DNA from: an uncultured bacterium | Lineage (GTDB): Bacteria > Verrucomicrobiota > Kiritimatiellia > RFP12 > UBA3636 | DNA: 64,000 nucleotides | Direction of reading: 5' to 3' | Assembly: GCA_902761575.1 (NCBI GenBank) | Contig: CACWKU010000001.1 | Location: 22,435-86,434, forward strand | Part shown: positions 1-30,100 of the stretch, piece by piece | How the letters are laid out: the number at the start of each line of letters is the position of its first letter | Numbering within the stretch: the stretch's first letter is position 1 | Program-made: the position numbers and the translations under genes | The notes under the pieces: generated by a model | Told to the model about the DNA's origin: nothing | Databases searched by the model: none | Seen by the model: only the letters and a program-made list of their open reading frames with translations

Positions 1-2976
1 TAGGAGACGGCGTAGGACGTCGCGTTCGCCCCCTCGTCGTCGGTGCCCATCACGATCCCGGAGAGGGAGATCGTCGCCGTCGTGCCGTTCACCTCGACGG
101 CCGCGGATCCGATCGACGGATCGACGACCGTCGCCCCGCCCGCGCCGAGCTCGCGGACCTGGATGGCGTTGATGCAGGCGTTCCCGGAATACTCGATCGT
201 GAATTCTTCCGAGGCGCCGCTTGCCGTGAAGACGCCGACGAGCGAACTTCCGTATTCCCAGCCCGTTCCGCCGAACTTGACGGTCGTCGTGCCGTCCGGC
301 GCGGTGGCGGACTGCGTCGTATAAGTCTGGTTGAACGCAATGATCTGGACCAGGTACCGCTTTCCGCTCTCAAGGTTGTTCAACTGGATCTTCCGGCCTT
401 TGGGGTTCGCCCACCAGCAGTGTCCCAGCATATTCTTATAGTCGACATCGTCGATGCCGGACGGAGGAGTCGGGGTGGCGGATTGCGCCCCCGTCGTGGC
501 CTCCCATACGACGCAGTCCGCGTTGTTGATGAGGCCACTACTAGCAATGAACGCGACACCGTTGACCGTGTAGTTCCCAGCCGCGTAGGCATACTTAAGC
601 GTGCCGTCGGTTCGTATCGCGGCGCTCGTCGCGCCCAGCGCCTCGCCGGTCCAGCCCTCCTCGGCGGAACCGCCGCCACCGCCGCCCGACGTGCTGATGG
701 CGAACGAGGCGGTCTTGGACGCCGTCTTGCCCTTGTCGGTCGTGATCGTGACTTCGCAGGTGTAGGAACCGTCGGCGAGATCGGCGATCTGGAACGAGGC
801 CGAGGCGGCGGTCTGGTTCGCGAGCACCGCCACCGCGGCCCCGCCGTTCAGCGCGTAGGAGACCGCGTAGGACGTCGCGGCCGCGCCCTCGTCGTCCGTG
901 CCGAGCACGATGTCGGAGAGCGAGATCGTCGCGTTCGAGCTGACGACGCTGGCTGCCGCCGACCCGATCGACGGCGCGACGACCGGCGGCGGCGGCGTGC
1001 CGATCCGGAAGGAGACGGTCTTTTCCGCCGAGGTCTTGTTCTTGTCGGTCGTGATCGAGACCGCGCACGTATACTCGCCGTCGGCGAGGTTCGCGATGTC
1101 GAACGAAGCCGTCGCGGCGGCCTGGCCCGTGAGCGCCTGCACCGCGGCCGCGTCGCCCAGGCGATAGGAGACGGCGTAGGACGTCGCGTTCGTCCCCTCG
1201 TCGTCGGTGCCCATCACGACGCCGGCGAGCGAGATCGTCGCGGTCGAGCCGTTCGTCGAGACGGAGACGGAGCCGATCTTCGGCAGGACGACGACCGGCA
1301 CGCCGCTCTCGCCGAGGTCGCGGACCTGGATGCCGTTGATGCCGTAGTTGCCGTCGGACGTGATGGTGAACGTCTTGGTGGTCTCGGTGGCCGTGAAGGT
1401 TCCCGTCAGCGTGCCGCCGCAGGACCAGCCGTCGCCATAGACCTTGATGAAGTTCGGATCCCAGTACGACTCCTTGATCCAGACATGAGCCTTGCTGTCG
1501 CCGTTGTAGTTGCGGTAGCCGAAGATCTGGACGAGATAGCTGCGTCCGACCGTGAGGTTCTTGAGCGTCACCGCCTTGTCGCCCTGGTTCGCCCACCAGC
1601 AGCGGTCCAGGAGTTCATGGTAGGCACCGGAGACGCTGCTCGGGGCCGACGCGCCCGAGGTCTGGCTGTACGGCCAGGCGATATCGCCCGAGATGTTCGC
1701 GTTGTTGTTCCCGGCGGCCGCGAACGCAACGCCGTTGACCGTGCACGCCGCGGGCGCATACGCATACTCGAGCGTGCCGTCCGTGCGGATGGCGCTGTCG
1801 TCGGTCGGCAGCGGGCTCGCGTACCACGGCTCGGTCATCGTGAAGTCGAGCAGCGTCACGAGCTCCTTGTCGTCGGCCGTCGTGACGGTCACCTTGCAGG
1901 TATGGTCGCCGAGGGCGACGTTCGGGATCGCGAACGAAGCCCGGGTGCCCGTCTGGCCGGAAAGCGCGCGCGTCTTCGCCCCGCCGTCGAGCTCGTAGTC
2001 GATTGCGTAGGACGTGACGGCGTTCGCGTTCGCGTCCGTTCCGAGGTTGACGCCGAAGACCGTGATCGTCGCCGAGCCCGCGCCGTCCGCGTTCGGGGCG
2101 GCCTTGGCGTAGCCGACGGAAGGATCCGCCACGTGCGCCTGGCCGGCGGGAACCGAGAGATACTTGTGCATCGCGTTGGTCAGCGCAGGCTTCCAGAAAT
2201 CCGAATAGGTGAAGAATTCCGGATGGAGGCAGAGTCCCACGGCGTCGTAGCCGCCGTGGCCGCCCTCGCGGTAGCAGACCTTGTCGGGCATCGAATTCTG
2301 CTGGAGGTACTGGCTGCGGAGGTCCACCCAGAACACGCGCTTGTTGTCGACGAACTGGAGGATGTAGTCGTTGACTGCCTCGCTCATGGCCGTCACTTCG
2401 GCCGCTTCGAAGTACCTGCTGTCGAAGCTGTAGGGGAGGATCGGCATCAGGAGGATCTTCGCGTCCGGATGCTTCGTCGCCATCTCGCAGAGCATGAGCC
2501 GGATCGACTCGGCGACATCCTCGGCGCGATCGGCGTGCTCGTTGTGGTCGATGCACTTCTGGTGGCCGTTGTTGATGCCGACCATCAGCGTGAAGTACTT
2601 CGTGGTATAGCCGTCGAGCGCGCCGTTCCGGAGGCGCCACAGGAGGTTCTGGACGCGGTCGCTGCCGATGCCCATGTTGAACGCCGCGGCGTAGTTGAGG
2701 GGATCCCCGTCGAGGGCCAGGCTGGGATTGTTCCAGAAGTCGGTGATGGAGTCGCCAAACAGGACCACGTCGAAGTCCTTGCCCTGGCTGCCGCTGATGT
2801 CGGCGCTGAAGTGGTTCTTGTGGTAGTCGTCCGTGCGCTCCTTCGGCGTGCACGGCTCCGAGCTGGGGTCGGATCCCGGCACCTGGGCGCCGATCACGAT
2901 CGGATCGGCGGACGCGACAGTCCAGGCCATCGCAAGGATCGCCGCCGACAGGAAGTGGAGGAGCTTGAGTTTCATG
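1..2976 (-). CDS. secreted SGNH/GDSL hydrolase with Ig-like repeats and two malectin-like beta-sandwich domains; partial, C-terminus lies beyond window start
   Basis: ATG at 2974-2976 (rc). N-terminus MKLKLLHFLSAAILAMA is signal-peptide-like. SGNH blocks FGDSITDFW, GIGSDRVQNLLWR, GINNG. Malectin-like signature HCWWAN...LVQI...NAIQVREL read on the reverse complement. Paralog of 10964..12616. Absent from the ORF track because it runs off the window edge. Confidence 0.8.
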
Positions 2977-3066
2977 GTGAACCTCGTGTTTGGATGAGCT
3001 GTTGTTTTCCTTGCGTAGTGCCGGTCCGGGCTCCGAGATGGCGGAGGTGCCGTTCGACAAGGCGGA

Positions 3067-3125
3067 ATTCTAGGCGTTGCCCCGTTTCGAAGATAGGGAC
3101 ACGGAACGCGGAAACAAGTAAATTT
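3067..3125 (-). promoter_or_regulatory. promoter of the left-edge SGNH gene: -10 TAGAAT plus upstream ATTTACTTG element 43 nt away
   Basis: rc ATTCTA at 3067-3072. Element ACAAGTAAATTT at 3114-3125. One member of the 11-copy promoter family. Confidence 0.5.
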
Positions 3126-3203
3126 CATTCATTCGCCCGAATCCAACCCGCGGCGCGAAGCGAACGGGTTGCCTCGCGTTCGGCCCGGTCTCCGCGTTCC
3201 CTA

Positions 3204-5243
3204 TCAAACGCGTGCGAGGTCCTTCTCGCGCAGGAGGCGCCAGGCGGCGTCGCGGACGTCCGTGACGTCGTCGCGCAGCCTGCCGCAGCGGCACGGGCGG
3301 AGGCGCACGAGGTGCGTCGCGTGGCCGGGGACGGAGGCCTCGTAGACGCCCATGAAGACGCCCTCGTCCTCCTGCCGCCACACGTCGCGCACGAGCCACT
3401 TGCAGAGCAGCCCGGCCTTCTTGAGGTCGAAGGGCACCATCCGCTCGAAGCCGGACTTGTTGTAGAGGCCGGCGGCGATGGAGCCGTCGGCGAGCGGGCG
3501 CGCCCAGACCTCCCAGCCGTCGCCCTCGGCGATGCAGCCCGCGGCCTTGCCGAGCTCGTCCTGGTCGATCTCGATCACCTCGTCGTTCGTGAGGAGCGAG
3601 CGCGTGAACGGGGAGAGCTTCGTAAGATCGCAACCGATCATGAGCGGCGCCGCGAGGAGCGCCCACATCGAGACGTGCGTGTACTGCTCGTTCGGCGCGA
3701 GGCGCGACTCCTTGCCGTCGTTCCAGCAGACCGCGCCGACGCAGAGCATGTCCGGGTCGTTCCACGCGCCGGGGCCGGCGTAGAGGAAGAGGCGCTTCTG
3801 CTTCTCGATGGCGGCGGAGACCGAGGACCAGGTGTCGAAGACGTCGCCCGTCGTGCGCCAGCTCTGCCCGCCGACGCATCGCCCCCACGCGCTCACGTTC
3901 TCCATGCCGTACTGGCAGAGCGAGAGGACGATGTCCCGCTTCTGGTGGCGCAGCGCGGCGCCCATCACGAGGTAGGGGTACATCGCGCGGAGCACGTCGG
4001 AGCCGAACGCGACGTCGTCGTAGAAGCACCAGTCGTGCTTGAGGTAGTCGAAGCCCCACTCGGCGAACGTCTTCGCGTCGAGCTCCTCGTGCTGCCAGCT
4101 CCCGGCGGCGCGGCCGCAGGTGAACGGACCGGGGCTCGAGTAGATGCCGGCCTTGAGGCCCTTCGCGTGGATGTGGTCCGCGAGCGCCTTCATGTCGGGG
4201 AAGCGCCGGTTCGCGGCGATGCGGCCGTCGGCGTCGCGCAGGGGCCCGTCGAGGTCGGGGTCCTCCTTCGCGCGCTCGGGGATGTTCTGCCAGAAGTCGT
4301 CGACGTTCACGTAGGCGTAGCCGTGGTCCGCGAGGCCCGTCGCGACGAGCGCGTCCGCGGCGGTGCGGACCTTCTCGTCCGAGACGCTTCCGGCGAACGC
4401 GTTCCAGCTGCTCCAGCCCATCGCGGGCGTGAGGCAGATCGTCTCGCCGACCCGGATCGTGAACGGCTTCTCGTCGCTGCCGAGGCGGTTCGTCGCGCGG
4501 ATCGCGAGCGCGTAGTCGCCGGGCTCGTCGATGCGGCCGGAGAGGATCCGCGTGGCGGGGTCGTAGGAGAGGCCCGCGAGCTTCGGACTGTCGAGCCCGA
4601 GGCCGATCACCTCGACGCGGAGCGGCGCGGCGCCGGTCGCGGGCACGCGGAAGAGGATGGGGCGGCCGGGCCGCACGCCGTAGACGCACGGGCCGTTCAC
4701 GCGCGGCTCGGGGCGCTCCGGCGGCGTGAGGATCCCGAGCTGGCGCGACGTGCGCCGGACGTCGTTCGGGAGCACCTTGCCGTCGGCGTAGAGCAGCTTC
4801 GCCCCGCCCCAGACGGCGCCGACGCCCTTCCCCGCCCCGCCGTCCGCCGGCTCGGCGACGAGCGTGAACGTCTGGGCGCCGCTCACGTCCGCGCGCGCCT
4901 TGAGGTCGGCCGTGTCGCCCGCCGCCACGACTCCCGACCAGACTTCGCGGCCGTCGGCGAGGACCTTCAGGGCGACCGTGCCCGGCGCGCCGGCGGCGTC
5001 GATGCCGCAGGACGCCTCGAACGCGGCCGCGTCGCCGCCGACCGGGATCTCCACGGCGAACGGCACGGGCGTGCGCAGCCCGAAGAAGTGCTTCTTCGCG
5101 GGGGTCGAGAAGCGCTTCTCGATCGCCGCGCAGGCGACCTCGCAGACGCCCTCGCCGCGCACGACCCTCGTGACGTCGAACATCTCGGCGGGGACGTAGT
5201 GGACGGCGGCGGGCGCCGTTGTGTGTTTCGTGGAACGTTTCAT
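3204..5243 (-). CDS. alpha-galactosidase, GH27 (melibiase) with N-terminal NPCBM-like and Ig-like domains
   Basis: Motifs LTPAMGWSSWNAF, YVNVDDFWQ, LKHDWC. The ATG (rc of 5241-5243) lies 5 nt after the stop of the upstream CDS. The track ORF 3204..6602 reads through into an overlapping gene in another frame. Confidence 0.75.
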   Translation of the reverse strand: MKRSTKHTTAPAAVHYVPAEMFDVTRVVRGEGVCEVACAAIEKRFSTPAKKHFFGLRTPVPFAVEIPVGGDAAAFEASCGIDAAGAPGTVALKVLADGREVWSGVVAAGDTADLKARADVSGAQTFTLVAEPADGGAGKGVGAVWGGAKLLYADGKVLPNDVRRTSRQLGILTPPERPEPRVNGPCVYGVRPGRPILFRVPATGAAPLRVEVIGLGLDSPKLAGLSYDPATRILSGRIDEPGDYALAIRATNRLGSDEKPFTIRVGETICLTPAMGWSSWNAFAGSVSDEKVRTAADALVATGLADHGYAYVNVDDFWQNIPERAKEDPDLDGPLRDADGRIAANRRFPDMKALADHIHAKGLKAGIYSSPGPFTCGRAAGSWQHEELDAKTFAEWGFDYLKHDWCFYDDVAFGSDVLRAMYPYLVMGAALRHQKRDIVLSLCQYGMENVSAWGRCVGGQSWRTTGDVFDTWSSVSAAIEKQKRLFLYAGPGAWNDPDMLCVGAVCWNDGKESRLAPNEQYTHVSMWALLAAPLMIGCDLTKLSPFTRSLLTNDEVIEIDQDELGKAAGCIAEGDGWEVWARPLADGSIAAGLYNKSGFERMVPFDLKKAGLLCKWLVRDVWRQEDEGVFMGVYEASVPGHATHLVRLRPCRCGRLRDDVTDVRDAAWRLLREKDLARV

Positions 5244-5248
5244 GGGAT

Positions 5249-8200
5249 CTAGCGCGTCAGGATCGCCCGGTAGAAATGGTGCTGGTCCGTGGCGGGCTGC
5301 CACGGGCCGGAAAGCGCGTCGGCGCCGAAGACCGTCACGGTCCCGTTGTAGGTCCCGGCGATGGCCGGAACCGTGCCCGGATCGATTCCCGCGAAGCGGA
5401 ACGCGGACTTCGCCTCGTCGAGGCCGGCCACGGCGCAGTTCAGAAGGTAGGCCGCCGAAAGCGCGTTGTCGGGGTTCCCGTCCGCGTCGAAGGACATCGC
5501 GTTCACGTCCGCGCCGCCGAACGGCACGCCGTTCGCGCGCGCCCACTTCGAGAGCCTGCGCAGCTCCGCCGTCGTGGTGCCGGCCTCCGCGAAGGCGCCG
5601 CCCGTGAGGCCGAGGTCCGCCGGCGAGGTGGCGTCCGTGATCGCCGTGTCGGGGTCCTCGGGCCAGTCCTGGAAGCCGCCGCCGCCGGCCTCGCCGAGGT
5701 CTCGGACCTGGAGGGCGGCGACGTAGCGCGCGGCGCCCGATCCGCCCATCTTGAACGTGACCACATGCGACGATGATTCCGCCGTGAACGAACCGTACAC
5801 CGTCGCGCCGGACGAGCCGTTCCCGTTCTGGATGCTGACGGAGGGCAGATCGCCGATCGTGATGTAGGCGTTTCCATACGAGTTGCGGGCCAGGATCTGC
5901 AGGAGATACGCATGGCCGGCCGTCAATCCCGAAAGCGTCAGATGGATCTCGCCCATGCCCGTATCCACGCCGAAGTCCCAGACCGTACCGAGGAGCGAGC
6001 TGCTCCCGGCGCTCACGTCCGCGCCGACGAAGGTCGGAGCAAAGGAAATGCTCGCCCCGGACAGGTTGGCGCCGGCCTGGAACGTCACGCCGCCCAGGGT
6101 CCGGTCCGTCGAGGCCCCGCGATAGGCGTAGAGAAGCGTGCCGTCCGTCCGGAGCATCGTTTCGTCCGACGCGCTCAGCGTCGCGACGGTCCAGCCCTCC
6201 ACGACGGAACCGCCGCCGCCCGACGTGTTGACGGCGAACGAGACGGACTTCGTGGCCGTCTTGCCCTTGTCGGTCGTGACCGTGACTGCGCAGGCGTAGG
6301 AGCCGTCGGCGAGGTTCTCGATGGAGAACGAGGCGGTGTCGTCGGTCTGGTTCGCGAGCGCCGCGACGGCGGTCCCGCCGTTCAGCGCGTAGGAGACGGA
6401 GTAGGACGACGCGGCCGCGCCCGCGTCGTCCGTTCCGAGCACGATGCCGGAGAGCGTGACCGTCGCGTTCGAGCCTGCAACATTGGCGGTCGCCGCGGCG
6501 ATCGACGGCGCGATGACCGGCGGCGGAGGCGTGCCGATCCGGAAGGAGACCGACTTCGCCGCCGAGGTCTTGCCCTTGTCGGTCGCGATCGTGACGACGC
6601 AAGTGTAGTCGCCGTCGGCGAGGTTCTCGATGGCGAACGACGCCGTCGCGCCGGTCTGGTTCTGCAGCGCCGTGACGGCGGTCCCGCCGTTCAGCGCGTA
6701 GGAGACGGAATAGGAAGTGGCGTCAGTCCCGGCATCGTCCGTCCCCATCACGATGCCGGAGAGAAAAAGCGACGCGGTGCTCCCGTCCGGAGTCGCGGTC
6801 ACGCTGCCGATCGACGGCTCGACGACCGTCGCCCCGCCGCCGCCGCCACCCCCGCCGCCGCCGTCGAGCTCGCGGACCTGGACGGCGTTGAACGGCATCT
6901 TGCCGCTACCGCCCTGATAGGTGATCGTCACGTCCTTCGTCGCGCCGACGGCCGTGAAGACGCCCGTGACGAGCGCGCCGTACTTCCCGCTCGCCTCGTT
7001 GTCGCCGTGGATGTGCACGGGGTCGCACCCGTTCGCGGAGACGGTCGTCGTGTTGTTCCAGTAGTTGTGCGCCAGGAACTGGACGAGGTAGATCTTCCCG
7101 CCTTCGAGATTCGAGAGCGTCAGCGTGACCGTGTGCGTGCCTGATCCGTCGCTGTCCCAGTACCAGCCGTTGCCGAGGGAGAGGCCGAGGTTGCCGCCGA
7201 CGCTTTCGTTCATGAAGTCGCCGGTGAAGCCGTCGATGTTGGGTGTGAAGGAGATCTTCGGAGGATTCTCCGAGGACTGGAGGTTCACGGACCGCTCGAA
7301 CGGGATTCCGTTGATGGTCCCGCCGTTGCAGACATAGCCGTAGACGAACGTGCCCTCCGTGCTGAATGCGGTGCCGCCCGCGTCCATGTATCCGGAGGTC
7401 CAGACATCGGAGACGGCGCTCGTGTTGACGTAGAAGACGACGGACTTCGTCTTCGCTCGCCCCTTGTCCGTCGTCATCGTGACCTCGCACGTGTGGTTGC
7501 CGTCCGCGAGGCCCTCGAGCGTGAACGAGCAGTCTTCCGACGTCTGGTCGGAGAGCGCCGTCACGGCCGCCGCGCCGTCGAGCTTGTAGGCGACGGAATA
7601 CTTCGTCGCGGGAACGGAGTTGGCGTCCGTGCCGAGGACGACGCCCGTGAGCGAGATCGTCGCGTTCGAACCGCTCGGCGCCGCGGCGAGCTCCGCGATG
7701 CGGGGATACTTCGGCCGGTTGTTCGTCGCGCGGTTCTGCGCGAACATCCAGACGAATCGGTGGTTCGGCGCGCCCGCCGTGACGTCGTCCTCCGTGGCGT
7801 AGCACGTCGTCCAGGCGTCGTGGCTGTTGTTCTCGAGCTTCTCGAAGATCACGTCCGATCCGAGCGCCCGGAGCGCCGTGACGATGCCCTCGGTCTGCTC
7901 GACGGGAATGGTCGGGTCTCCGCGGTTGTGCACGGCCAGGACCGGGACGTGCGCGATGTCGGCCGCGCAGGCGGGATCGCCGCCGCCGCAGCACGGCATC
8001 GCCGCGGCGAAGAAGTCGGGCCGGCGGCAGATCGCGTCCCAGGTCCCGTGCCCGCCCATCGAGAGGCCGGTGACGTAGATGCGGTCGGCGTCGACGTCCG
8101 CCATCGCGGCGTAGGCGTCGAGAAGGTCGAACACCGCCTGGAGCGCCGCGGACGGCTTGTCCTGGAACGTGCAGGTGGTCGAGTTCATGGAGAACTCCGC

Positions 8201-10795
8201 CCACTTGACGTCGTTCGGGCACTGGGGGACGAGAAGCTTGTAGCCGCTTGGGCCGCCCGCGCCGTCGAGGTAGCGCTGAATGTTCGACATCTCGTTGATC
8301 GTGAACGAATTGTCGACGCCGCACTGGCCGTATCCGTGAAGGAACACGACGACGGGAACCTTGCCGCCGTTCGGATCGGCCTTCGCCGCGACGCGGTAGG
8401 GGAGCTGAAGCTTGTTGGACGCGATGAAGGTCTTCTTGACGAATTCGCCGGTCAGGTCGTCGCCGCCGCCACCACCGCCGCCGCCGCCACCGCCGAGCTC
8501 GCGGAGCTGAATGGCCTTGACGAGGCATTTGCTGCCGGAGGTGGCGAACGTGACGGTCACGGTCTCCTGCGCGCCCGTCGCCTCGAACACGCGCGAAATG
8601 ACGGCGCCGCACTTGTAGTCGTTCTGCTTGGTGGCCTCGAACGGAACGAGATCGCCGGCGGAGAGCGTCGTCGAGGAATTGTTCCAGTGGTTGGCGGCGA
8701 GAATCTGGACCAGGTACTTCTTCCCGGCCGTGAGCCCCTGGAGGGTGAAGGCAAGGTCCAGCGAGGAGTCGCTCTTCTCCCACACCCAGCCGCCGTTGAA
8801 CACCGGGTTGTTCTCCGTCCAGCCCGCGCCGGCGTACGACGAGGGCGAGACCGTCGCCTGGTCCGAGCCCGGGAAGCCCGCGGAGAACGAGACGCCGTTG
8901 ACAGTGTGCCCGGTGAAGCCGCGCGCGAAGACCTGCGTGCCGTCGCTGCGGAACGCCGAGCCCGTCGCGTCCATCGGCGCGACCTTCCAGCCGACGGCGT
9001 CGGCCTGGGAATCGATCTGGAACTTGACGCGCTTCACGGCGGACATCACGACGCCGTCCGACGAAACCCAGACCGCGCAGGTGTGCCAGCCGTCGGCGAG
9101 GTCCGCGAGCTCGAACGAGGCCGAGGAGCCCGTCTCCGCCGCGGGAAGCGCCGTCTCGGCGCCCGCGTCGAGCTTGTAGGAGACCGCGAAGGACGCAGCG
9201 GCCGCGCCGCTCGCGTCCGTGCCCTTCGTCACGTTCGAAAGCGAGATCGTCGCCGACGTGCCGCTGACCTGCGCGGCGGCGGAGCCGATCGTCGGAAGCA
9301 CGACGGGCGAGGCGCCGGCCGTCGCCATCGCGCTGGCGATCGCGGGCGCGAGGATCTCCTCGTAGGCCTTCGTGGTCAGGTGCAGGAACTGGTCGGGATA
9401 GTCGCCGTTGCCCTGGAGGTACATCTCGCCGCGGTACGTCCCGTCGGCGTTCAGGAACTGGCTGCGGACGTCGACGAGGATCACGCGCTCTCCGTCCGCG
9501 AACGTCCGGATGATCTCGTTCGCCGCCTCGTTGTTGGCGTAGTGCGCGGCGCCCTTCGCGCCGTTCTGCGCGTTCGTGTAGCCGTAGGGGATGATCGGCA
9601 TCAGGAGGACCTTCGACTCGGGATGCTTCGCGAGGATGAGGTCGAGCACGGCGCGCACGCCCGCGGCGATGTCCGCGGGATCCTCGCTCGGATTCTTCCC
9701 GATCGTGTTGTTCGTGCCGATCAGCAGGTTGAAGAACTTCGTCGTGTAGCCGTCGATGCAGCCGCTCTCGAGGCGCCACAGCAGGTTCTCCACGAAGTCG
9801 CCGGTCCGGCCGAGGTTCAGGACGTTGGCGGCGAGTCCGTTCATGGACGAGGCGCTGTTCCCCTCCATCCACTTCTGAGTGAGGGAGTCGCCGAGGAGGA
9901 CGAGATCGAAGCTCCGGCCGTTTTCGCCGATGAGCTTCAGGTCGTCCTCGAACTTCCGCCAGAAGGCGTCCTGCAGATCGGCGTTGACCGCCGTCGGGAA
10001 CGTCGCGATGCGGTCGATCTCGGGACGCGCCGTCGCCACGAGGTCGGCGGGCATCGCGGAGCCGCCCGCCGCGGCGGCGACGTAGGGCGCGACCGCCTGG
10101 GCCCAGACCTCGTAGCCGGCCGCGTTCAGCGTGACGCGGTCGGCATTGAAGAGCGAGGTCTTCAGCGTGTGGTGGTCGTTCTCGAGGAAGAGGTCCGACA
10201 TGTCCACCCAGGCGCATCCCTTCTTCTGCGCGTACGCGCGAACGTCGATGTTCAGGCGGTCGTTGCGCGGACGCACGGGATCGGACTCGTCGAGCCCGCG
10301 CGGAAGCACCGCCTGCACGACGACCTTGGACGCGCCAACGCTTGCGACGAGGTCGTCGATGATTTCGCGCACGCCCAGGTACGTCTTCCCCTCCGGCTCC
10401 TCCTTCTCGGTGTAGATCGCGGCGTTGTTGCCGCCGACCATCAGGAAGACGACCTTGGGGCTGCCGAGCTCGCCGTTCCGGATGCGCCAGAGGACGTTCT
10501 CCGTGCAGTCGCCGGCGAAGCCGAGGTTGAACATTGTCCTGTCGCCGGTGAAGTAGGTCGCGAGCGCGCCCGCGCCCGTCGTCTCCCAGTCCTGCGTCAG
10601 CTCGTCGCCGAGGAAGACGATGTCCTTCCTGATGGAACTGTCGGCCACCGCCGCGACCTTCTCGGCGTGGCGCGCCGTCCACCAGGCGTCGAGCCGCGAG
10701 GCGGGGGTGTTCGCGCGGATGGACACCGCGGGTGCGTTCACAGCGGCCATCGCGAGGATCGCCGCGGACAGGAACGTGAAGGAGTGGGGTTTCAT
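5249..10795 (-). CDS. giant secreted multi-domain carbohydrate esterase: 2x SGNH hydrolase, one alpha/beta-hydrolase esterase (GLSMGGHGTWD), 5 Ig-like and 3 malectin-like domains, two Gly11 linkers, conserved ~130-aa C-terminal domain
   Basis: Real start MKPHSFTFLSAAILAMAAVNA (signal peptide) at 10793-10795, not the upstream TTG/ATG of the track ORF. Domain motifs are read directly from the translation. Confidence 0.8.
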   Translation of the reverse strand: MKPHSFTFLSAAILAMAAVNAPAVSIRANTPASRLDAWWTARHAEKVAAVADSSIRKDIVFLGDELTQDWETTGAGALATYFTGDRTMFNLGFAGDCTENVLWRIRNGELGSPKVVFLMVGGNNAAIYTEKEEPEGKTYLGVREIIDDLVASVGASKVVVQAVLPRGLDESDPVRPRNDRLNIDVRAYAQKKGCAWVDMSDLFLENDHHTLKTSLFNADRVTLNAAGYEVWAQAVAPYVAAAAGGSAMPADLVATARPEIDRIATFPTAVNADLQDAFWRKFEDDLKLIGENGRSFDLVLLGDSLTQKWMEGNSASSMNGLAANVLNLGRTGDFVENLLWRLESGCIDGYTTKFFNLLIGTNNTIGKNPSEDPADIAAGVRAVLDLILAKHPESKVLLMPIIPYGYTNAQNGAKGAAHYANNEAANEIIRTFADGERVILVDVRSQFLNADGTYRGEMYLQGNGDYPDQFLHLTTKAYEEILAPAIASAMATAGASPVVLPTIGSAAAQVSGTSATISLSNVTKGTDASGAAAASFAVSYKLDAGAETALPAAETGSSASFELADLADGWHTCAVWVSSDGVVMSAVKRVKFQIDSQADAVGWKVAPMDATGSAFRSDGTQVFARGFTGHTVNGVSFSAGFPGSDQATVSPSSYAGAGWTENNPVFNGGWVWEKSDSSLDLAFTLQGLTAGKKYLVQILAANHWNNSSTTLSAGDLVPFEATKQNDYKCGAVISRVFEATGAQETVTVTFATSGSKCLVKAIQLRELGGGGGGGGGGGDDLTGEFVKKTFIASNKLQLPYRVAAKADPNGGKVPVVVFLHGYGQCGVDNSFTINEMSNIQRYLDGAGGPSGYKLLVPQCPNDVKWAEFSMNSTTCTFQDKPSAALQAVFDLLDAYAAMADVDADRIYVTGLSMGGHGTWDAICRRPDFFAAAMPCCGGGDPACAADIAHVPVLAVHNRGDPTIPVEQTEGIVTALRALGSDVIFEKLENNSHDAWTTCYATEDDVTAGAPNHRFVWMFAQNRATNNRPKYPRIAELAAAPSGSNATISLTGVVLGTDANSVPATKYSVAYKLDGAAAVTALSDQTSEDCSFTLEGLADGNHTCEVTMTTDKGRAKTKSVVFYVNTSAVSDVWTSGYMDAGGTAFSTEGTFVYGYVCNGGTINGIPFERSVNLQSSENPPKISFTPNIDGFTGDFMNESVGGNLGLSLGNGWYWDSDGSGTHTVTLTLSNLEGGKIYLVQFLAHNYWNNTTTVSANGCDPVHIHGDNEASGKYGALVTGVFTAVGATKDVTITYQGGSGKMPFNAVQVRELDGGGGGGGGGGATVVEPSIGSVTATPDGSTASLFLSGIVMGTDDAGTDATSYSVSYALNGGTAVTALQNQTGATASFAIENLADGDYTCVVTIATDKGKTSAAKSVSFRIGTPPPPVIAPSIAAATANVAGSNATVTLSGIVLGTDDAGAAASSYSVSYALNGGTAVAALANQTDDTASFSIENLADGSYACAVTVTTDKGKTATKSVSFAVNTSGGGGSVVEGWTVATLSASDETMLRTDGTLLYAYRGASTDRTLGGVTFQAGANLSGASISFAPTFVGADVSAGSSSLLGTVWDFGVDTGMGEIHLTLSGLTAGHAYLLQILARNSYGNAYITIGDLPSVSIQNGNGSSGATVYGSFTAESSSHVVTFKMGGSGAARYVAALQVRDLGEAGGGGFQDWPEDPDTAITDATSPADLGLTGGAFAEAGTTTAELRRLSKWARANGVPFGGADVNAMSFDADGNPDNALSAAYLLNCAVAGLDEAKSAFRFAGIDPGTVPAIAGTYNGTVTVFGADALSGPWQPATDQHHFYRAILTR
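6831..6865 (-). repeat. GGC/GGT codon tract encoding a Gly11 linker in the giant esterase (second copy at 8458-8497)
   Basis: CCGCCGCCACCCCCGCCGCCGCC on the plus strand. Protein reads ...LRELGGGGGGGGGGGDDL... Confidence 0.8.
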
Positions 10796-10883
10796 CGTGA
10801 GCCTCGTGCTTTGGTTGCGTGCCCTTTCCGCACGCGTGCCGAATCCGGCCACGCGATGGCGATGGCTCCGTTCGACACCGCGA

Positions 10884-10942
10884 ATCATACCGCCGCGCCC
10901 GCCCGTTCGGCTAGGTAGATTCGCGGCGGATATCAGTAAAGA
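10884..10942 (-). promoter_or_regulatory. promoter of the giant esterase gene: -10 TATGAT plus upstream TTTACTGATA element
   Basis: rc ATCATA at 10884-10889. Element CAGTAAAGA at 10934-10942. Confidence 0.5.
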
Positions 10943-10963: not shown

Positions 10964-12616
10964 CTAGCGCGTCAGGTCGCGGACCTGGATGGCGTTGAGG
11001 GCGTAGTTGTTGTCGGCGCAGACGGTGATCGTCTTCGTGGGCGCGGTCGCCGTGAAGGTTCCCGTGAGCACGCCGCCGCGGGCCCAGCCGTCGCCGCAGA
11101 CCTTGATGTAGTTCGTGTCCCGGAACGACTCCTTGATCCAGACGTGCGACTTCTCGTAGCCGTTGAAGTCGCGGAAGCCGACGATCTGGACGAGGTAGCG
11201 GTGGCCGGGCACGAGGTTCCGGAGCGTCACCTCCTTCTCGCCCGCGTTCGCCCACCAGCAGTGGGCCAGCAGGTCGCGGAGCCCGCCGCCCACGACGTCC
11301 GCCGGGACCTGCGAGCCGGAGGTCGGCCCGTAGGGCCAGGCGATGTTCGCGTCGTCGATGGCGCCGTTCGCGGCGGCGAAGGGAACGGAATGGGCCGTGT
11401 AGGTGCCGCTCCCGACGGCGTACGCGCAGACGAGCGTCCCGTCCGTCCGAATCGCGCCGCCGTCGGCGGAGAGCGCCTCGCCCCGCCAGTCCTCGGTCAT
11501 CGTGAAGTCGACCGAGGTCGAGAGCTCCCTGCCGTCCGCGGTCGTGACGGTCACCTTGCAGGTGTGCGCGCCGAGCGCGACGTCCGGGATCGTGAACGAG
11601 TTGCGCGTCTTCGTCTGGTTCGAGAGGACCGGCTTCCTCGGCCCGCCGTCGAGCTCGTAGGCGACCGAGTAGGACGCGACGGGAACGGCCTTCGCGTCCG
11701 TCCCGAGGAAGATGCCGCGGACCGTGATCGTCGCGGTCCCCGGGCCGTCCGCGTTCGGCGCGGCCGACGCGTAGCCGAGCGAGGGGTCCGCCACGTGGGG
11801 CCGGCCCGCGGGGATCGCGCGGTACTTCTGCATCGCGGCCGTCAGGGCGGGCTTCCAGATGGCGGGATAGGCGGAGTCGGCCGGATGCAGGCAGTGCCCC
11901 TTCGAATCGTAGACGCCGGCCTTGTAGCAGCTCTCCTTGCAGGAGGCGTCGGGGTTGAGGAACGCGCCGCGCAGGTCCACCCAGAACACGCGACTGTTGT
12001 CGACGAACCCCAGGATGATGTCGTTGACGTCCTCGTTCACGTTGCGGACGTCGAGCGCCGCGTAGTACCGGCTCTCGAACCCGTAGGGCAGGATCGGCAT
12101 CAGGAGGATCTTCGACTCGGGGTGCTTCGCCACGATCTCGCGCAGGATGAGCCGGATCGACTCGGCGACGTCCTCCGCGCGGTCGCAGGGGTCGTCGTGG
12201 TTGTCGACGTGCTTCTGGTAGCCGTTGTTCACGCCGATCATCAGCGTGAAGTACTCCGCCTGGTAGCCGTCGAGCGCGCCGTTCCGGACGCGCCAGAGCA
12301 GGTTCTGCGCGCGGTCGCTGCCGATGCCCATGTTGATCGTCCTGCCGGCATCCCCGTCGAAGCTCAGGTTCGAGTAGACCCAGAAGTCGGTGATGGAGTC
12401 GCCGAAGAGGACGGCGTCGAACGACTTGCCCTGGCTCTGGCTGCGGTCGTCTTCGAAGTGGCGAACGCCGTACTCGTCCGTGCGACGCGCCGGCGTGCAC
12501 GGCTCCGAATCCGGGTTTGAGCCCGGCACGGGGACGTCGAGCGGTCCGCCGAACGCGGCGGTCGCGGCGACCGCGAGGATCGCCGAGGAGAGGAGCGGGA
12601 GGGCGTGGAGCTTCAT
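10964..12616 (-). CDS. secreted SGNH hydrolase + Ig-like + C-terminal malectin-like domain
   Basis: Track ORF. Signal peptide MKLHALPLLSSAILAVAATAA. Motifs FGDSITDFW, GIGSDRAQNLLWR, GVNNG. Ends ...NAIQVRDLTR. Confidence 0.8.
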   Translation of the reverse strand: MKLHALPLLSSAILAVAATAAFGGPLDVPVPGSNPDSEPCTPARRTDEYGVRHFEDDRSQSQGKSFDAVLFGDSITDFWVYSNLSFDGDAGRTINMGIGSDRAQNLLWRVRNGALDGYQAEYFTLMIGVNNGYQKHVDNHDDPCDRAEDVAESIRLILREIVAKHPESKILLMPILPYGFESRYYAALDVRNVNEDVNDIILGFVDNSRVFWVDLRGAFLNPDASCKESCYKAGVYDSKGHCLHPADSAYPAIWKPALTAAMQKYRAIPAGRPHVADPSLGYASAAPNADGPGTATITVRGIFLGTDAKAVPVASYSVAYELDGGPRKPVLSNQTKTRNSFTIPDVALGAHTCKVTVTTADGRELSTSVDFTMTEDWRGEALSADGGAIRTDGTLVCAYAVGSGTYTAHSVPFAAANGAIDDANIAWPYGPTSGSQVPADVVGGGLRDLLAHCWWANAGEKEVTLRNLVPGHRYLVQIVGFRDFNGYEKSHVWIKESFRDTNYIKVCGDGWARGGVLTGTFTATAPTKTITVCADNNYALNAIQVRDLTR

Positions 12617-12803: not shown

Positions 12804-14384
12804 TCAGCGGGTCAGGATCGCCTGGAAGAAGCGGTGCTCGGCCGTGGCGGGCGCCCACGCGCCGCCGAGGTCGTCCGCGCCGAGGACCGTCACGCTGCCG
12901 TTGAGGCCGGAGGCGTCGATGGACGGCACCGTCCCGGGCGTGAACTCCGTGAAGCGGAACGCGGCCTTCCTCGCGTCCAGGTCGCCGACGCCGCAGCCGA
13001 GCAGGTACGCCGTCGTGAGATCGGTGTCCGGGTTGCCCGATTCGTCGAAGGCCATCGCGTTCACGTCCGCGCCGGCGTAGCGCACGCCGTTCGCGCTCGC
13101 CCACTTCGAGAGCCTGCGCAGCTCCGCCGTCGTGGTGGCGGACTCCGCGAAGCCGCCCGCGACGAGGCCCAGGTCGATCGGCCGCATCGCGTCCGTGATC
13201 TGCGCGTCGGGATCCTCGGGCCAGTCGAGAAACGGCGGAACGGTCGGACCGCCCTCGTCGGGAAGGCCCGTCAGCGTCAGCGCGCAGAGGCGGGGGACGG
13301 TCACCGCCCTAAAGGTCATGCCGTAGACCGTCTTCTCCTTGGTCTCGCCGCCGTCCGAGACGAGGAAGACGGCGCGAGTGCCGTCACCGAGGATCGGTCC
13401 GAGCGCGATGCCCTCGTAGACGATGATCTGCTCAAGCCCCCCGCCCCGAAACTCCAGCAGGGCGCTTCCCTTCGAGACCGCCTCGTAAGCGTCCGTCTCC
13501 GTCAGCGCGGCAATCTCCGAGACTTCCGTCGCCGCGGCAAGGGCGGCTGTCGTGATCCGGTAGACGCGACAGCGCCCGAAGGTCGTGGTGCTCACCTCGC
13601 GCTCGAGGGTCAACAGCGACCCGTCCGGCAGCGCGCACAGTCCGGAGAGGCCGCACTGGGAGAACTGGGCGAGCTGCGAGATGAGGACCGACGAGCACGG
13701 GTCGCACAGGTAGGCCCATTCGCCGGCCGACTCCCAGTCAGCCTCCGCCGACTCGCGCGTGAAGCGCGTCAGGCGTACGGCGGTGCTCACGGTGCTGTTG
13801 CCGCTCGAGGAATCGCCGTCGCACGTGAGCGCCTGCTCGTTGGCCGTCCACATCGTGAGCCCATCCGGCGAAACCGTGAGCGCCTCGAGCGAAAGGTTGG
13901 ACCGTTTGTAGTTGCGCTGGACGGCGGGAACCGGGGCGGTCCGCCCCGTGGCGACGCCGTCGAGGCCGTATTCGGCGATCGTCGGGGAGGCTTCGTCGCT
14001 GATCCACAGCGCTCCGGTCTGCGGGTCGAGGGCGATCCCCTCCGCGTCGGTGAGCGTCCCGGGCGTGAACTCCGCGCCGATCGACTGGGCGGCGATGGCG
14101 CCGGAGGCGGGATTGATCGCGAACGAAACCGGATAGACCTTCGACTTGTTGTCGCCCGCGTGGTCGCGCAGCACGTAGAAGACGCCGGCTCGCCCGGACC
14201 AGGCGATGCCGCCGCATCCGTCCTTCTCGAAGGAATACTCGGCGACCTTCTCGATCGAAAGCGAGTAGTCGGAGTCCGGACCGGCGACGATCTCTCGGCT
14301 CGCGGCGTGCGCGAGGGAGGCGCCCAGGACGATGGCGAGCGCGACGGCGGGAATGGCATGCATGGCGGGACTTGGGCTGGACAT
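12804..14384 (-). CDS. secreted beta-propeller protein of the phytase-like esterase family, with the C-terminal domain shared with 5249..10795
   Basis: Track ORF with a signal peptide (alternative start at MHAIPAVALAIVLGASLAHA). Motif EGIALDPQTGALWISDE. C-terminal 130 aa can be aligned by eye to the C-terminus of the giant esterase. Confidence 0.55.
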   Translation of the reverse strand: MSSPSPAMHAIPAVALAIVLGASLAHAASREIVAGPDSDYSLSIEKVAEYSFEKDGCGGIAWSGRAGVFYVLRDHAGDNKSKVYPVSFAINPASGAIAAQSIGAEFTPGTLTDAEGIALDPQTGALWISDEASPTIAEYGLDGVATGRTAPVPAVQRNYKRSNLSLEALTVSPDGLTMWTANEQALTCDGDSSSGNSTVSTAVRLTRFTRESAEADWESAGEWAYLCDPCSSVLISQLAQFSQCGLSGLCALPDGSLLTLEREVSTTTFGRCRVYRITTAALAAATEVSEIAALTETDAYEAVSKGSALLEFRGGGLEQIIVYEGIALGPILGDGTRAVFLVSDGGETKEKTVYGMTFRAVTVPRLCALTLTGLPDEGGPTVPPFLDWPEDPDAQITDAMRPIDLGLVAGGFAESATTTAELRRLSKWASANGVRYAGADVNAMAFDESGNPDTDLTTAYLLGCGVGDLDARKAAFRFTEFTPGTVPSIDASGLNGSVTVLGADDLGGAWAPATAEHRFFQAILTR

Positions 14385-27173: not shown

Positions 27174-30100
27174 CTATTCCGGCATGCGCACCCAGACCCG
27201 GAAGAAGCGGCTGTCGGCGTTCGGCGCGGTCCAGACCTCGTTCGTGAGGAAGGGCTTGCCCTCTATGGTGTAGACGCGCTTGGCGCCGAGGTCCGGATGC
27301 CAGGAGATCTCCGGCTCGTCGCCGGGCACGAGGATGTCCGCGAGGAAGCGCGAGAGCGCATCGAGCGGGTTCAGGCCCGCGACGAACTCCTCCCAGAGCG
27401 TGTCGCCCTTGCCCGACGGCAGCGGCTTCAGCGCCTCGTAGCCGCTGGTCGACCCGATGCCGTGGAAGTCGATCCACGCCTCCCATTCGCCCTTCGTCGC
27501 CTCCGGAATCCACTGCACGCAGTCGAGGAAGCCGCGGTCTTCGCCGTCGGCCATTCCGGAGTCCTTCGCGTAGGTCCAGCGCAGCGTGTGCGCCCCCTCC
27601 CCCTCGACGGCGAACGACGCCCGCTCCCACTTCGTCCGCCCGTCGAGACGCGCCTTCTCGACGCCGTCGACGAGAAACGCAAGGTGGTCCCAGTCGCGAT
27701 AGCCGCTGTCGTCGCGCTCGCACGAGGCGCGCCAGCGGAAATCGATCTGTCCCGGTCCTTCGACCGTCGTCTCGATCCAGCTTTCGCCGTTGTCGCCGGG
27801 CGACGCGGAGGTCGCGCGGTGGACGCCGTCCGCCGAGTCCTCGGTCGCCTCGGGAACCCACGGATCGTCGTCCCCGGTCGTGAAGGCGAGCTGCGGCATG
27901 TTGACCGCCGTCGCGAGCCCGAGCGTCGAGCCGAGCGCCGGAACGCCCGCCCCCGAACGGCCCGCGAGGTTCTCCGAGACAACGAAGTAGTAGTAGGTCT
28001 TCCCGGGCTCGACCGTCACGTCGGTCCACGAAAGGCCCTCCGTCGTCCCGAGCTCCTCCGCCGCCGCGAGGTCGGGCGACGTCCCGCGGCAGACGCGGTA
28101 GGAGTCCGCCGTCTCCACGGCGTCCCACGAGAGCGCGATGCCCGCGCCTTCCTGCGCCGCCGCGAGGCCGTCCGGCGCCTGCGCCACGTAGACATGGACG
28201 ATCGTCGCGGTCGCGACCTCGCTCGCCCAATCGCCGCGCACCACGGCGATCGCCTTCACCGTCGTCGTCTCAAGGATCGAAAACTTGACGGAAGTCGCGC
28301 TGTTCGTCGCCGGGTCGGAACCGTCCACCGTGTGGTAGATCTTCGCGTCCGGATCGGTGCACGTGAGCATCACCGACTGCGAGTTCTTGTTCGCGAACTG
28401 CGTTCCGTCCGGCGGATCGATGACGGGCGTCGCCGGTACGCCGTATTCGTAGCAGCCCATGTCCACCGCCGCGTGCGCGACGCGCGGATTGCCGGCGAGG
28501 TCCGTCTTCCCCGCCGCCCACGACGTGTCGCCCGCGTCGACGCACGGCGCCACCGCGCGCACGCGGTAGTCGCCGTTCGCCGCGTCGAAGAAGAGGTCCG
28601 CCGCCGACGCGACGATATTGCTAGTCCCGACGGTTTCCGTGTCGAGGCAGGAATAGTCGACGTTGCACGTCGCGGCATGGACTTCGGTTCCGACCGGTAC
28701 ATTCTCGACGAAATTGCCGACAATGACGCAGTTTGTCGCGACGCATTTTCCGATGGCGCATGCCCCCAGACTAATGGCGTTCGTATTCGCGGCAACGGTG
28801 CAGTTCGCAAGCGAACATTTGTAGGCGGCACTGGGTGCACAACCGCTGTGATCGTCGTTCCAGACGACATTGCCGGCAATCAGGCAGTTCTCCATGTCGG
28901 CTTCGTACGCCGCGCCCCATTTCCGGCTGACATTACCGGTCAAAATGCAGTTCTTCAATGTCGCAGTCAGAACGGCCGACCCCCCACCCGAACAGTATCC
29001 ATTACGGAACATGAATCCTTCCATTGTCACGAGCCCGCGGAGGGTTTCGTAGTAATAGGCGCTCGGATCCGTCGGCTGATACGCCGCCATCTGGATACAG
29101 CGCCGGAGCCCTTGACCGTCGATGATCGTCGTCGCGGGACCGTTTGCGCTTCGAATGCGCAGGTGTGCGCTTTTCCAGTTCACGATGGAACTGGAAGCCT
29201 GCGCATCGCCCGTATAGACGCCGTCCGCCACGACGATTTCGTCGCCGTCCGCCGCCCAGTCGATGGCATTCTGGATGGTCGCCTTCGCCGTTTCCCAGGA
29301 GAGGCCGTCGTTCGCATCGTCGCCCGTCGCCTGCGCGACGTATTGCGTCGCCGCCGCGTAGTGGGTGGCCCATTCGTAGCAACCCATGTCGGTCCCGACG
29401 CCGATCCACCGCGAGTGGCCATCGAGGTCGGTTCCAAGCTTGGCCTCGGTTGTCAGTCCGCCCGCGTCGATGCACGGCGAGCCCGCCGTGAGCCGGTAGT
29501 CGCCGTTCGCCGCGTCGACGAAGAGCGGATCGGCGTCGATGTTGCCCGAGCCGGAGACGGCCGAACCGAAGCAGGAATAGGTCGCGGTGGAATTGTAGAT
29601 ATCGTTTGCGGCTCCGCTCGTGTAGGCGTTTCCGTAGACGATGCAGGATTCGAGCGTGCAGAAGTCGCAACCGCCGCCGCCGGGCTTGCTGGAAGAACCG
29701 TAGACGGCCCGGTTGTCCACAATCGTGCACCGGACCGCATCGCAGCTGCCAAGTCCGCCGCCCGTCGTGGCGGCGACGATGTTGTTCGCCAGATTGTCCG
29801 CAATCAAGCAATCTTCCAGCCGGGAATTCATGGCGCCGCCCCCGCCGGCGGACGAAACGTTGTTGGAAACGATGCATCGAAAGGCAATGCTGCATTGAAG
29901 TCCCCCGCCGTAGCCGCGGAACGAAGGGTCGTCGTCTTTCCCGGCGTAGTTCCCCGTCACGATGCACGCTTCCAGAATTCCGCCGCGAACGCCGGCTCCG
30001 TGGTCGTTCCGGCCGTTCCGCAACGTAAAGCCGACAAGCGTCGTTTTCACGGCATCGGTCCTTTCGGCACCTAGCGTCGCGCAGCGGTTCGTGCCGCCGC

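Follow-up and report, generated by a model that had tools for sequence, protein, structure and literature searches.

A conserved C-terminal domain of exported proteins from gut and rumen Kiritimatiellia with a possible role in cell-surface localization

The Kiritimatiellia of gut and rumen, abundant and uncultured, degrade complex glycans, and little is understood of the way in which they export and position their enzymes. A 64-kb stretch of DNA from such a bacterium (contig CACWKU010000001.1; hereafter, the window) encodes a giant esterase and a phytase-like protein that end in closely similar tails of about 140 residues. What, then, does a common C-terminal domain (CTD) do on two proteins whose catalytic parts are unrelated? 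The analysis described below leads us to conclude that the CTD is a real, conserved, and unannotated domain family, and its distribution is suggestive of a role in localization.

Two copies of the domain and their carriers

The common tail was noticed in an initial annotation of the window, which estimated about 60% identity by eye. Both tail sequences quoted there proved to be exact, and BLASTP of the two tails revealed 91 identical residues out of 139 (65%) with a single gap (E 3e-64). Chance similarity was rejected outright. Copy 1 corresponds to residues 1739-1879 of the open reading frame (ORF) 5249..10888 on the minus strand, with the stop codon adjoining at 5249..5251. Copy 2 comprises residues 385-526 of ORF 12804..14384, likewise on the minus strand, with the stop codon at 12804..12806. 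The interval 5249..5650 originally assigned to the domain covered the bulk of copy 1 and left out its first 8 residues. A tblastn search of the whole window with copy 1 as the query returned positions 5252..5674 (E 1e-94) and 12807..13232 (E 4e-58), the next match having an E-value of 2.8. By this search, the window holds two CTD copies only. The copies, their carriers, and the linkers that precede them are as follows, each with the evidence on which the assignment is based.

5252..5674, minus strand: CTD copy 1, the final 141 residues of the giant esterase (FQDWPEDPD...HHFYRAILTR); translation, BLASTP, family hidden Markov model (HMM), AlphaFold2 (AF2)
12807..13232, minus strand: CTD copy 2, the final 142 residues of the phytase-like protein (FLDWPEDPD...HRFFQAILTR); translation, BLASTP, tblastn, family HMM
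5249..10795, minus strand: carrier 1, giant secreted multi-esterase with CTD; Pfam, NCBIfam, start kept in the related loci L002 and L003
12804..14384, minus strand: carrier 2, secreted phytase-like (PF13449) protein with CTD; Pfam, translation
5675..5695, minus strand: Gly-rich linker GEAGGGG, from the last module resembling a carbohydrate-binding module (CBM; ..AALQVRDL) to CTD copy 1; translation
13233..13274, minus strand: Pro/Gly-rich linker LTGLPDEGGPTVPP, from the phytase-like domain to CTD copy 2; translation

Carrier 1 has the signal peptide MKPHSFTFLSAAILAMAAVNAPAVS and is composed of two GDSL domains, an alpha/beta hydrolase resembling DLH and polyhydroxybutyrate (PHB) depolymerases, repeated immunoglobulin (Ig)-like and CBM-like modules, and poly-Gly linkers. 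Its Pfam matches include PF13472 (6.6e-32), PF00657, PF01738, and PF19077, and the NCBIfam match was PHB-depolymerase-like. Position 10795 (MKPHSF..., signal peptide), which the initial annotation had taken as the start of the gene, is likely the true one and is also found in L002 and L003. The poly-glycine linkers are unbroken, with up to approximately 11 Gly residues (residues ~768-780, ~1311-1321, and ~1524-1530), and part the CBM-like repeats, all with the terminal motif ..A[IV]Q[LV]R[ED]L. The same kind of CBM-like module, without a CTD, terminates the single-domain GDSL protein encoded at 10964..12616 (..NAIQVRDLTR, followed by the stop codon). Carrier 2 (signal peptide ..AVALAIVLGASLAHA/AS) contains a Phytase-like domain, PF13449, at residues 56-344 (E 3.2e-41). 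According to Pfam, the parts upstream of the CTD, a GDSL/DLH esterase in one protein and a Phytase-like domain in the other, are unrelated, as had been proposed from the letters of the sequence. The ratio of nonsynonymous to synonymous substitution rates between the copies amounted to ~0.2-0.8; as the GC content at third codon positions exceeds 0.9, the synonymous rate is unreliable, and the ratio was not used as evidence.

Distribution, terminal position, and predicted fold of the family

Building an HMM and searching for other proteins that end in the domain had been suggested at the outset. Our exhaustive HMMER search over 1.84 billion representative proteins retrieved 291 members at E<=1e-3, 114 of them at E<=1e-10, and revealed that the domain has an extreme preference for the C-terminal end. 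A word-indexed protein search, which yielded mainly short fragments, was less informative. In the top 150 members of the HMMER search, no more than 2 residues follow the domain in 98 cases and no more than 10 in 133; nearly all members had one matched stretch, and none contained a full internal copy. Scores of the window copies against the family profiles were 133-242 bits, those of copy 1 being 155-239 bits, and in both copies the stop follows the profile end at a distance of 0 residues. Membership in the new family was defined by a match over ~130-140 positions that runs to the protein C-terminus and by a set of core motifs (WA, AYLLNC, F[KR]F, YNG, and FF[KR]A.L); both window copies belong to it.

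The terminal position was also examined independently of gene callers in stop-to-stop ORFs of the window and 52 loci, which came from scans of species-representative genomes and of metagenomes and from exact look-ups. The domain was present in 53 such ORFs from 51 sequences (the window and 50 loci), and in 52 of the 53 the stop codon lay 0-2 residues past the final profile position. The sole exception was a deletion fusion in L002 (RUG13889), a locus 96% identical to the window. A deletion at ~10395..10420 of this locus, equivalent to ~5190..5275 of the window, takes the stop codon together with the 7 final CTD codons before it and approximately the first 20 codons of the adjacent GH27 alpha-galactosidase gene. 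The product is a single esterase-galactosidase ORF of 2512 residues, which may be real or an assembly artefact of the metagenome-assembled genome (MAG). Tandem or internal CTDs were never encountered among the members checked.

Ten positions of the domain (W, A, L, L, F, N, G, F, A, L) are near-invariant, and in the alignment they look like core residues, being hydrophobic or Gly/Asn. Polar residues are not conserved as a catalytic-looking set, and the reading as a catalytic domain was rejected. The last residue is K or R in 107 of 147 representatives, 79 of which end in L[TV][KR], and the domain is strongly acidic (mean net charge of -9.5 in 101 members). Most carriers appear to be exported by the Sec pathway: 106 of 115 long, Met-started members (~92%) passed a crude signal-peptide test, as did both carriers of the window. 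The domains upstream of the CTD comprise GDSL/DLH esterases, phytase-like domains, CotH with LTD, Calx-beta together with Flg_new (Listeria-Bacteroides repeats), and PPC, and in many carriers the upstream part had no Pfam match. Thirty-four of the 147 representatives (<50% identical mutually) form a paralogue group with a near-invariant signal peptide, MK[QT]LKFMLAAATAIGLA.A.QA, a CTD, and divergent middles. Members of this group, which lies within P0032-P0159 (for example, P0033 at 10001..11749 of L012), have an unannotated domain after the signal peptide, and the group looks like a large family of surface-protein paralogues.

Wherever a record bore an organism label, the host was a MAG from rumen or gut; the labels comprise 'Kiritimatiellia bacterium', 'Kiritimatiellae bacterium ... 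Goat_Abomasum', 'uncultured Lentisphaerae', 'uncultured Verrucomicrobia', and RUG genomes. The window itself is placed in this Kiritimatiellia-type rumen/gut group by L002 and by L003, the latter being 93% identical. As far as the data show, the family appears to be confined to gut and rumen bacteria of the Kiritimatiellia type. The sole protein name among the matches was 'hypothetical protein [Kiritimatiellae bacterium]', and full-text literature searches returned no description of the domain. A single CTD HMM provides a handle for listing the likely surface and secreted proteome of these bacteria in metagenomes.

A structure prediction, likewise proposed in the initial annotation, resulted in a confident AF2 model. 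From a 10-sequence alignment, the mean predicted local distance difference test score (pLDDT) was 93.9 and the predicted template modeling score (pTM) was 0.86. The model contains short helices at residues 8-11, 18-21, and 55-58, longer helices at 35-47, 71-77, and 82-91, and a terminal beta-hairpin formed by residues 112-118 and 134-140. The CTD is accordingly modeled as an independently folding alpha+beta module of ~140 residues that is mostly helical. Foldseek detected no match for the model in the PDB at E<=0.001 and none in BFVD, so that the fold is without a recognizable solved relative and probably new. Among all PDB sequences, the top match to a profile had an E-value of 0.24.

Neither Pfam at E<=10, searched with the domain and ten aligned members, nor NCBIfam at E<=1 returned a match for the tail. 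Therefore, the models for CTDs of the type IX secretion system (T9SS), PEP-CTERM, LPXTG, dockerin, S-layer homology (SLH), and CBM domains are excluded. This applies to the T9SS models TIGR04183 and PF18962 and to type B, TIGR04131, to the PEP-CTERM models TIGR02595/PF07589, and to the sortase models PF00746/TIGR01167. The view that the tail is not a PEP-CTERM, LPXTG, or T9SS signal was supported by these searches, in which a dockerin match was absent as well. PEP-CTERM/exosortase and LPXTG/sortase signals resemble the CTD in being C-terminal on proteins with signal peptides and in being lineage-specific. They consist, however, of ~25-35 residues in which a motif precedes a membrane-spanning helix and a basic cluster, whereas the CTD is a soluble fold of 140 residues. 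Neither window tail contains a PEP or LPXTG motif or a membrane-spanning stretch, and the proteins end in ...FYRAILTR and ...FFQAILTR; since the longest hydrophobic/Gly run is 9 residues, a membrane-spanning helix is not present, and a membrane-spanning sorting signal was rejected. The outcome that the initial annotation had named as decisive against its reading, a known catalytic or binding family showing no preference for C-termini, did not occur.

Possible roles of the domain

One relative unites the two carriers of the window. P0013, encoded at 5516..10426 of L005 (Kiritimatiellia MAG JAZSOG010000027), is one polypeptide of 1651 residues with an esterase part, a phytase-like domain, and a single CTD. 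The esterase part shares 91% identity with residues 784-1310 of the giant esterase and 73% identity with its residues 1427-1707. At the site equivalent to the 5675..5695 linker, it has a Gly/Ser linker, directly followed by the phytase-like domain, which is 60% identical to carrier 2. A linker equivalent to 13233..13274 then leads to the CTD and is also found in P0016 and L006. In the window, the esterase and phytase-like parts are two genes, each with a CTD of its own. Thus, the number of CTDs tracks polypeptides and not catalytic modules. By the logic of a Rosetta-stone fusion, the two carriers are indicated to be functionally linked. One CTD per polypeptide is what would be expected if a tag gathers separately exported partners at one place.

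Judged from sequence, the CTD has the hallmarks of a C-terminal localization module, namely, unrelated exported carriers, a single terminal copy, a fold of its own after a linker, and no catalytic signature. We read it as such a module because its carriers are exported and unrelated, its position is strictly terminal, and its fold is joined through a flexible linker. The paralogue group, in which signal peptide and CTD are kept while the middles diverge, is in keeping with a surface location. Our preferred, tentative reading is that the CTD may be a lineage-specific tag for the cell surface, which would tether its carriers non-covalently to a common envelope receptor. In the proposed sequence of events, the N-terminal signal peptide would direct the carrier to Sec export, and the C-terminal module would then bind the receptor, for which a surface glycan, a surface protein, or a protein of the outer membrane could be envisaged. 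As a result, enzymes and adhesin-like proteins with differing upstream domains would be held at one site of the cell. We infer the localization role, the non-covalent binding, and the existence of the receptor alike. The CTD can serve as bait for a receptor or an export machinery and represents a candidate for a new fold. Should the partner turn out to be a dedicated translocon, it would constitute a new protein-sorting system of the Planctomycetes-Verrucomicrobia-Chlamydiae (PVC) superphylum.

Several observations weigh against the tethering to a surface receptor. The CTD is present on 2 of ~15 window proteins with a signal peptide and therefore is not a general requirement for export. In a minority of members, up to ~12 residues extend beyond the domain, and for this reason the free C-terminus itself is probably not the recognized feature. 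All CTD hosts are uncultured. Moreover, no gene for a receptor, translocon, peptidase, or scaffold was found, and no neighbor was conserved across lineages. Pfam annotation of the rest of the 64-kb window revealed carbohydrate-active enzymes, esterases, an ABC transporter, and sugar-nucleotide enzymes, and no secretion machinery. All-vs-all clustering of the ORFs from the window and the 52 loci likewise yielded no machinery gene common to the CTD loci and uncovered lineage-specific synteny only. Co-occurrence with a secretion or sortase-like system, for which the initial annotation had recommended a search, was thus not observed in the window or beside family members. Finally, the sequence evidence does not discriminate among anchoring, transient sorting, and scaffold docking; the readings weighed here overlap.

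The closest parallel in architecture is the T9SS CTD of Bacteroidota (Por_Secre_tail, TIGR04183/PF18962), a globular domain found singly at the very C-terminal end of cargo proteins that are exported by Sec and vary in their upstream domains. Its last beta-strand is conserved, its end is often basic, and it occurs once per polypeptide. By analogy, the CTD of the window might be a cleavable secretion signal, recognized in the periplasm by a dedicated outer-membrane translocation or attachment system and removed later. The carriers indeed follow the pattern of T9SS cargo, with a signal peptide, a variable upstream part, and one terminal globular domain of ~100-140 residues at the extreme C-terminus. 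The conserved last strand with its frequent K/R and L[TV][KR] endings and the presence of one tag per polypeptide point in the same direction. The domain has, however, no relation to T9SS CTDs in sequence or fold: these form an all-beta, Ig-like sandwich of seven strands (~70-100 residues), in contrast to the predicted six helices and beta-hairpin of the CTD. The junction between CTD and linker is not conserved across subfamilies. Candidate machinery was absent from the window and the loci, with no SprA/Sov, PorV, or PorU-like genes in the 64-kb window and the loci of <=20 kb. The hosts also differ, being Kiritimatiellia, not Bacteroidota but members of the PVC superphylum, and T9SS has no known occurrence in the latter superphylum. 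Altogether, a cleavable signal of this kind seems unlikely. A C-terminal propeptide, acting as an intramolecular chaperone of large exported proteins before its removal, would also be terminal and reside on large secreted proteins. Such propeptides are normally specific to one catalytic fold, yet the CTD follows unrelated upstream folds and is found on proteins of ~500 residues as well, so that we regard this role as hardly credible.

The remaining alternatives assume a binding partner other than a surface receptor. The type I dockerin (PF00404) of cellulosomal enzymes is, like the CTD, an acidic module placed C-terminally behind a linker, on rumen bacterial enzymes that act on plant polysaccharides, and the CTD plausibly gathers enzymes, too. 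It could thus dock to a cohesin-like repeat on a scaffold and thereby assemble a cell-bound multi-enzyme complex. Its location on carbohydrate-active esterases of a rumen organism, its strongly acidic character, and the fusion of esterase and phytase-like parts in P0013, which suggests side-by-side action, agree with this proposal. Dockerins, on the other hand, are built from two 22-residue calcium-binding F-hand repeats; the CTD is about twice as long, lacks a duplicated calcium-binding loop, and remained unmatched by the dockerin model at a threshold as loose as E 10. The acidic stretch D.DGNPD, seen in the window copies, is not retained by distant members, many carriers are non-enzymatic, repeat-rich or LamG-like proteins, and no repeated cohesin-like partner was seen in the window or beside family members. 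A dockerin-like function is consequently quite unlikely. Of the roles suggested in the initial annotation (sorting, anchoring, or dockerin-like assembly), what stands is a discrete terminal module on exported carriers; a dockerin match and a partner system were not found. A ligand-binding, CBM-like module that targets the enzymes to their substrate, not to the cell, strikes us as very unlikely. CBMs are not restricted to the C-terminal end, are often internal or repeated, and are usually all-beta, whereas the CTD is single, strictly terminal, and mostly helical, and it matched no CBM family in sequence or fold. In addition, the CotH kinase-like, Calx-beta, and unknown carriers have no obvious substrate in common, and a conserved aromatic or polar surface motif is not evident in the domain.

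Other terminal tails and neighboring genes

A further terminal tail, here called type-2, is encoded at 27177..27443 on the minus strand, at the end of ORF 27174..33467 (...LWEEFVAGLNPLDALSRFLADILVPGDEPEISWHPDLGAKRVYTIEGKPFLTNEVWTAPNADSRFFRVWVRMPE). Its carrier is a giant secreted protein of 2097 residues with beta-helix and FGE-sulfatase domains. The motif of this tail reads ...W..FVAGLNP...F.A.I...P.ISW.PDLG..R.Y.I.G...L...W...RFF[RK]V.V..P and ends at the stop codon. The type-2 tail also occurs at 2113..4008 of L011 (minus strand) and in ten database fragments, none of which is annotated in Pfam or NCBIfam. Like the CTD, it is strictly C-terminal on a giant secreted protein, and its motifs parallel the second half of the CTD in their order: FVAGLNP corresponds to AYLLNC and F.A.I to F.F..I, followed by P.I, V.V.G...L...W, and FF[KR]. 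Unlike the CTD, it is without a helical N-terminal half. The HMMER profiles of the CTD did not detect the type-2 tail. An hhalign comparison of the 101-sequence CTD alignment with nine type-2 tails matched 70 columns, from AYLLNC to the end, with a P-value of 3.9e-4 and a probability of only 35%. AF2 modeling of the type-2 tail produced a result of too low quality for use (pLDDT 50). On these alignments, homology of the type-2 tail to the C-terminal half of the CTD is possible. One could go further and envisage the CTD as the cargo tag of an undescribed outer-membrane secretion and attachment pathway in gut Kiritimatiellia, a functional counterpart of T9SS whose recognition domain would have a new alpha+beta fold. 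The type-2 tails with RFFRV would then mark further cargo of this pathway as another, related tag class; we consider this extended scheme doubtful. A GLUG-motif/M26-like protein (41317..43515, minus strand) ends in ...DLADWSDENLVPMAYDGGDGTWKPAAGGSPPRLFFRWKIDFAEE directly before its stop codon and shows a W...FFR pattern in the terminal strand; it, too, went undetected by the CTD profiles.

Recurring ORF families were observed downstream of CTD-bearing Calx-beta/Flg_new giants at 18217..20849 of L014 and also in L045, L046, L047, and L051. These CTD-bearing giants are distant (34-37% identical). In L014, a GH172 gene and a HEAT-like gene are followed by a Ser/Thr kinase gene and a sigma-70-like gene. 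The arrangement is specific to the lineage and was not seen at other CTD loci.

Next to the giant esterase gene, a gene at 3204..5243 (minus strand) encodes a GH27 alpha-galactosidase with an NPCBM domain. It starts 5 nucleotides past the stop codon of the esterase gene, and because of this short distance the two genes are probably co-transcribed. The N-terminus of the alpha-galactosidase (MKRSTKHTTAPAAVHYVPAEMFDV) is unlike a signal peptide, in contrast to those of its neighbors. The gene at 3..3128 (minus strand), which is cut by the edge of the window, encodes a paralogue of the giant esterase with GDSL and Ig-like domains and a signal peptide of similar style. Its full homologue is encoded at 12545..19507 of L002 (plus strand), comprises 2320 residues, and ends in a tail of the W...RFFRVAL type, not in a CTD. 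Thus, close paralogues bear differing C-terminal modules.

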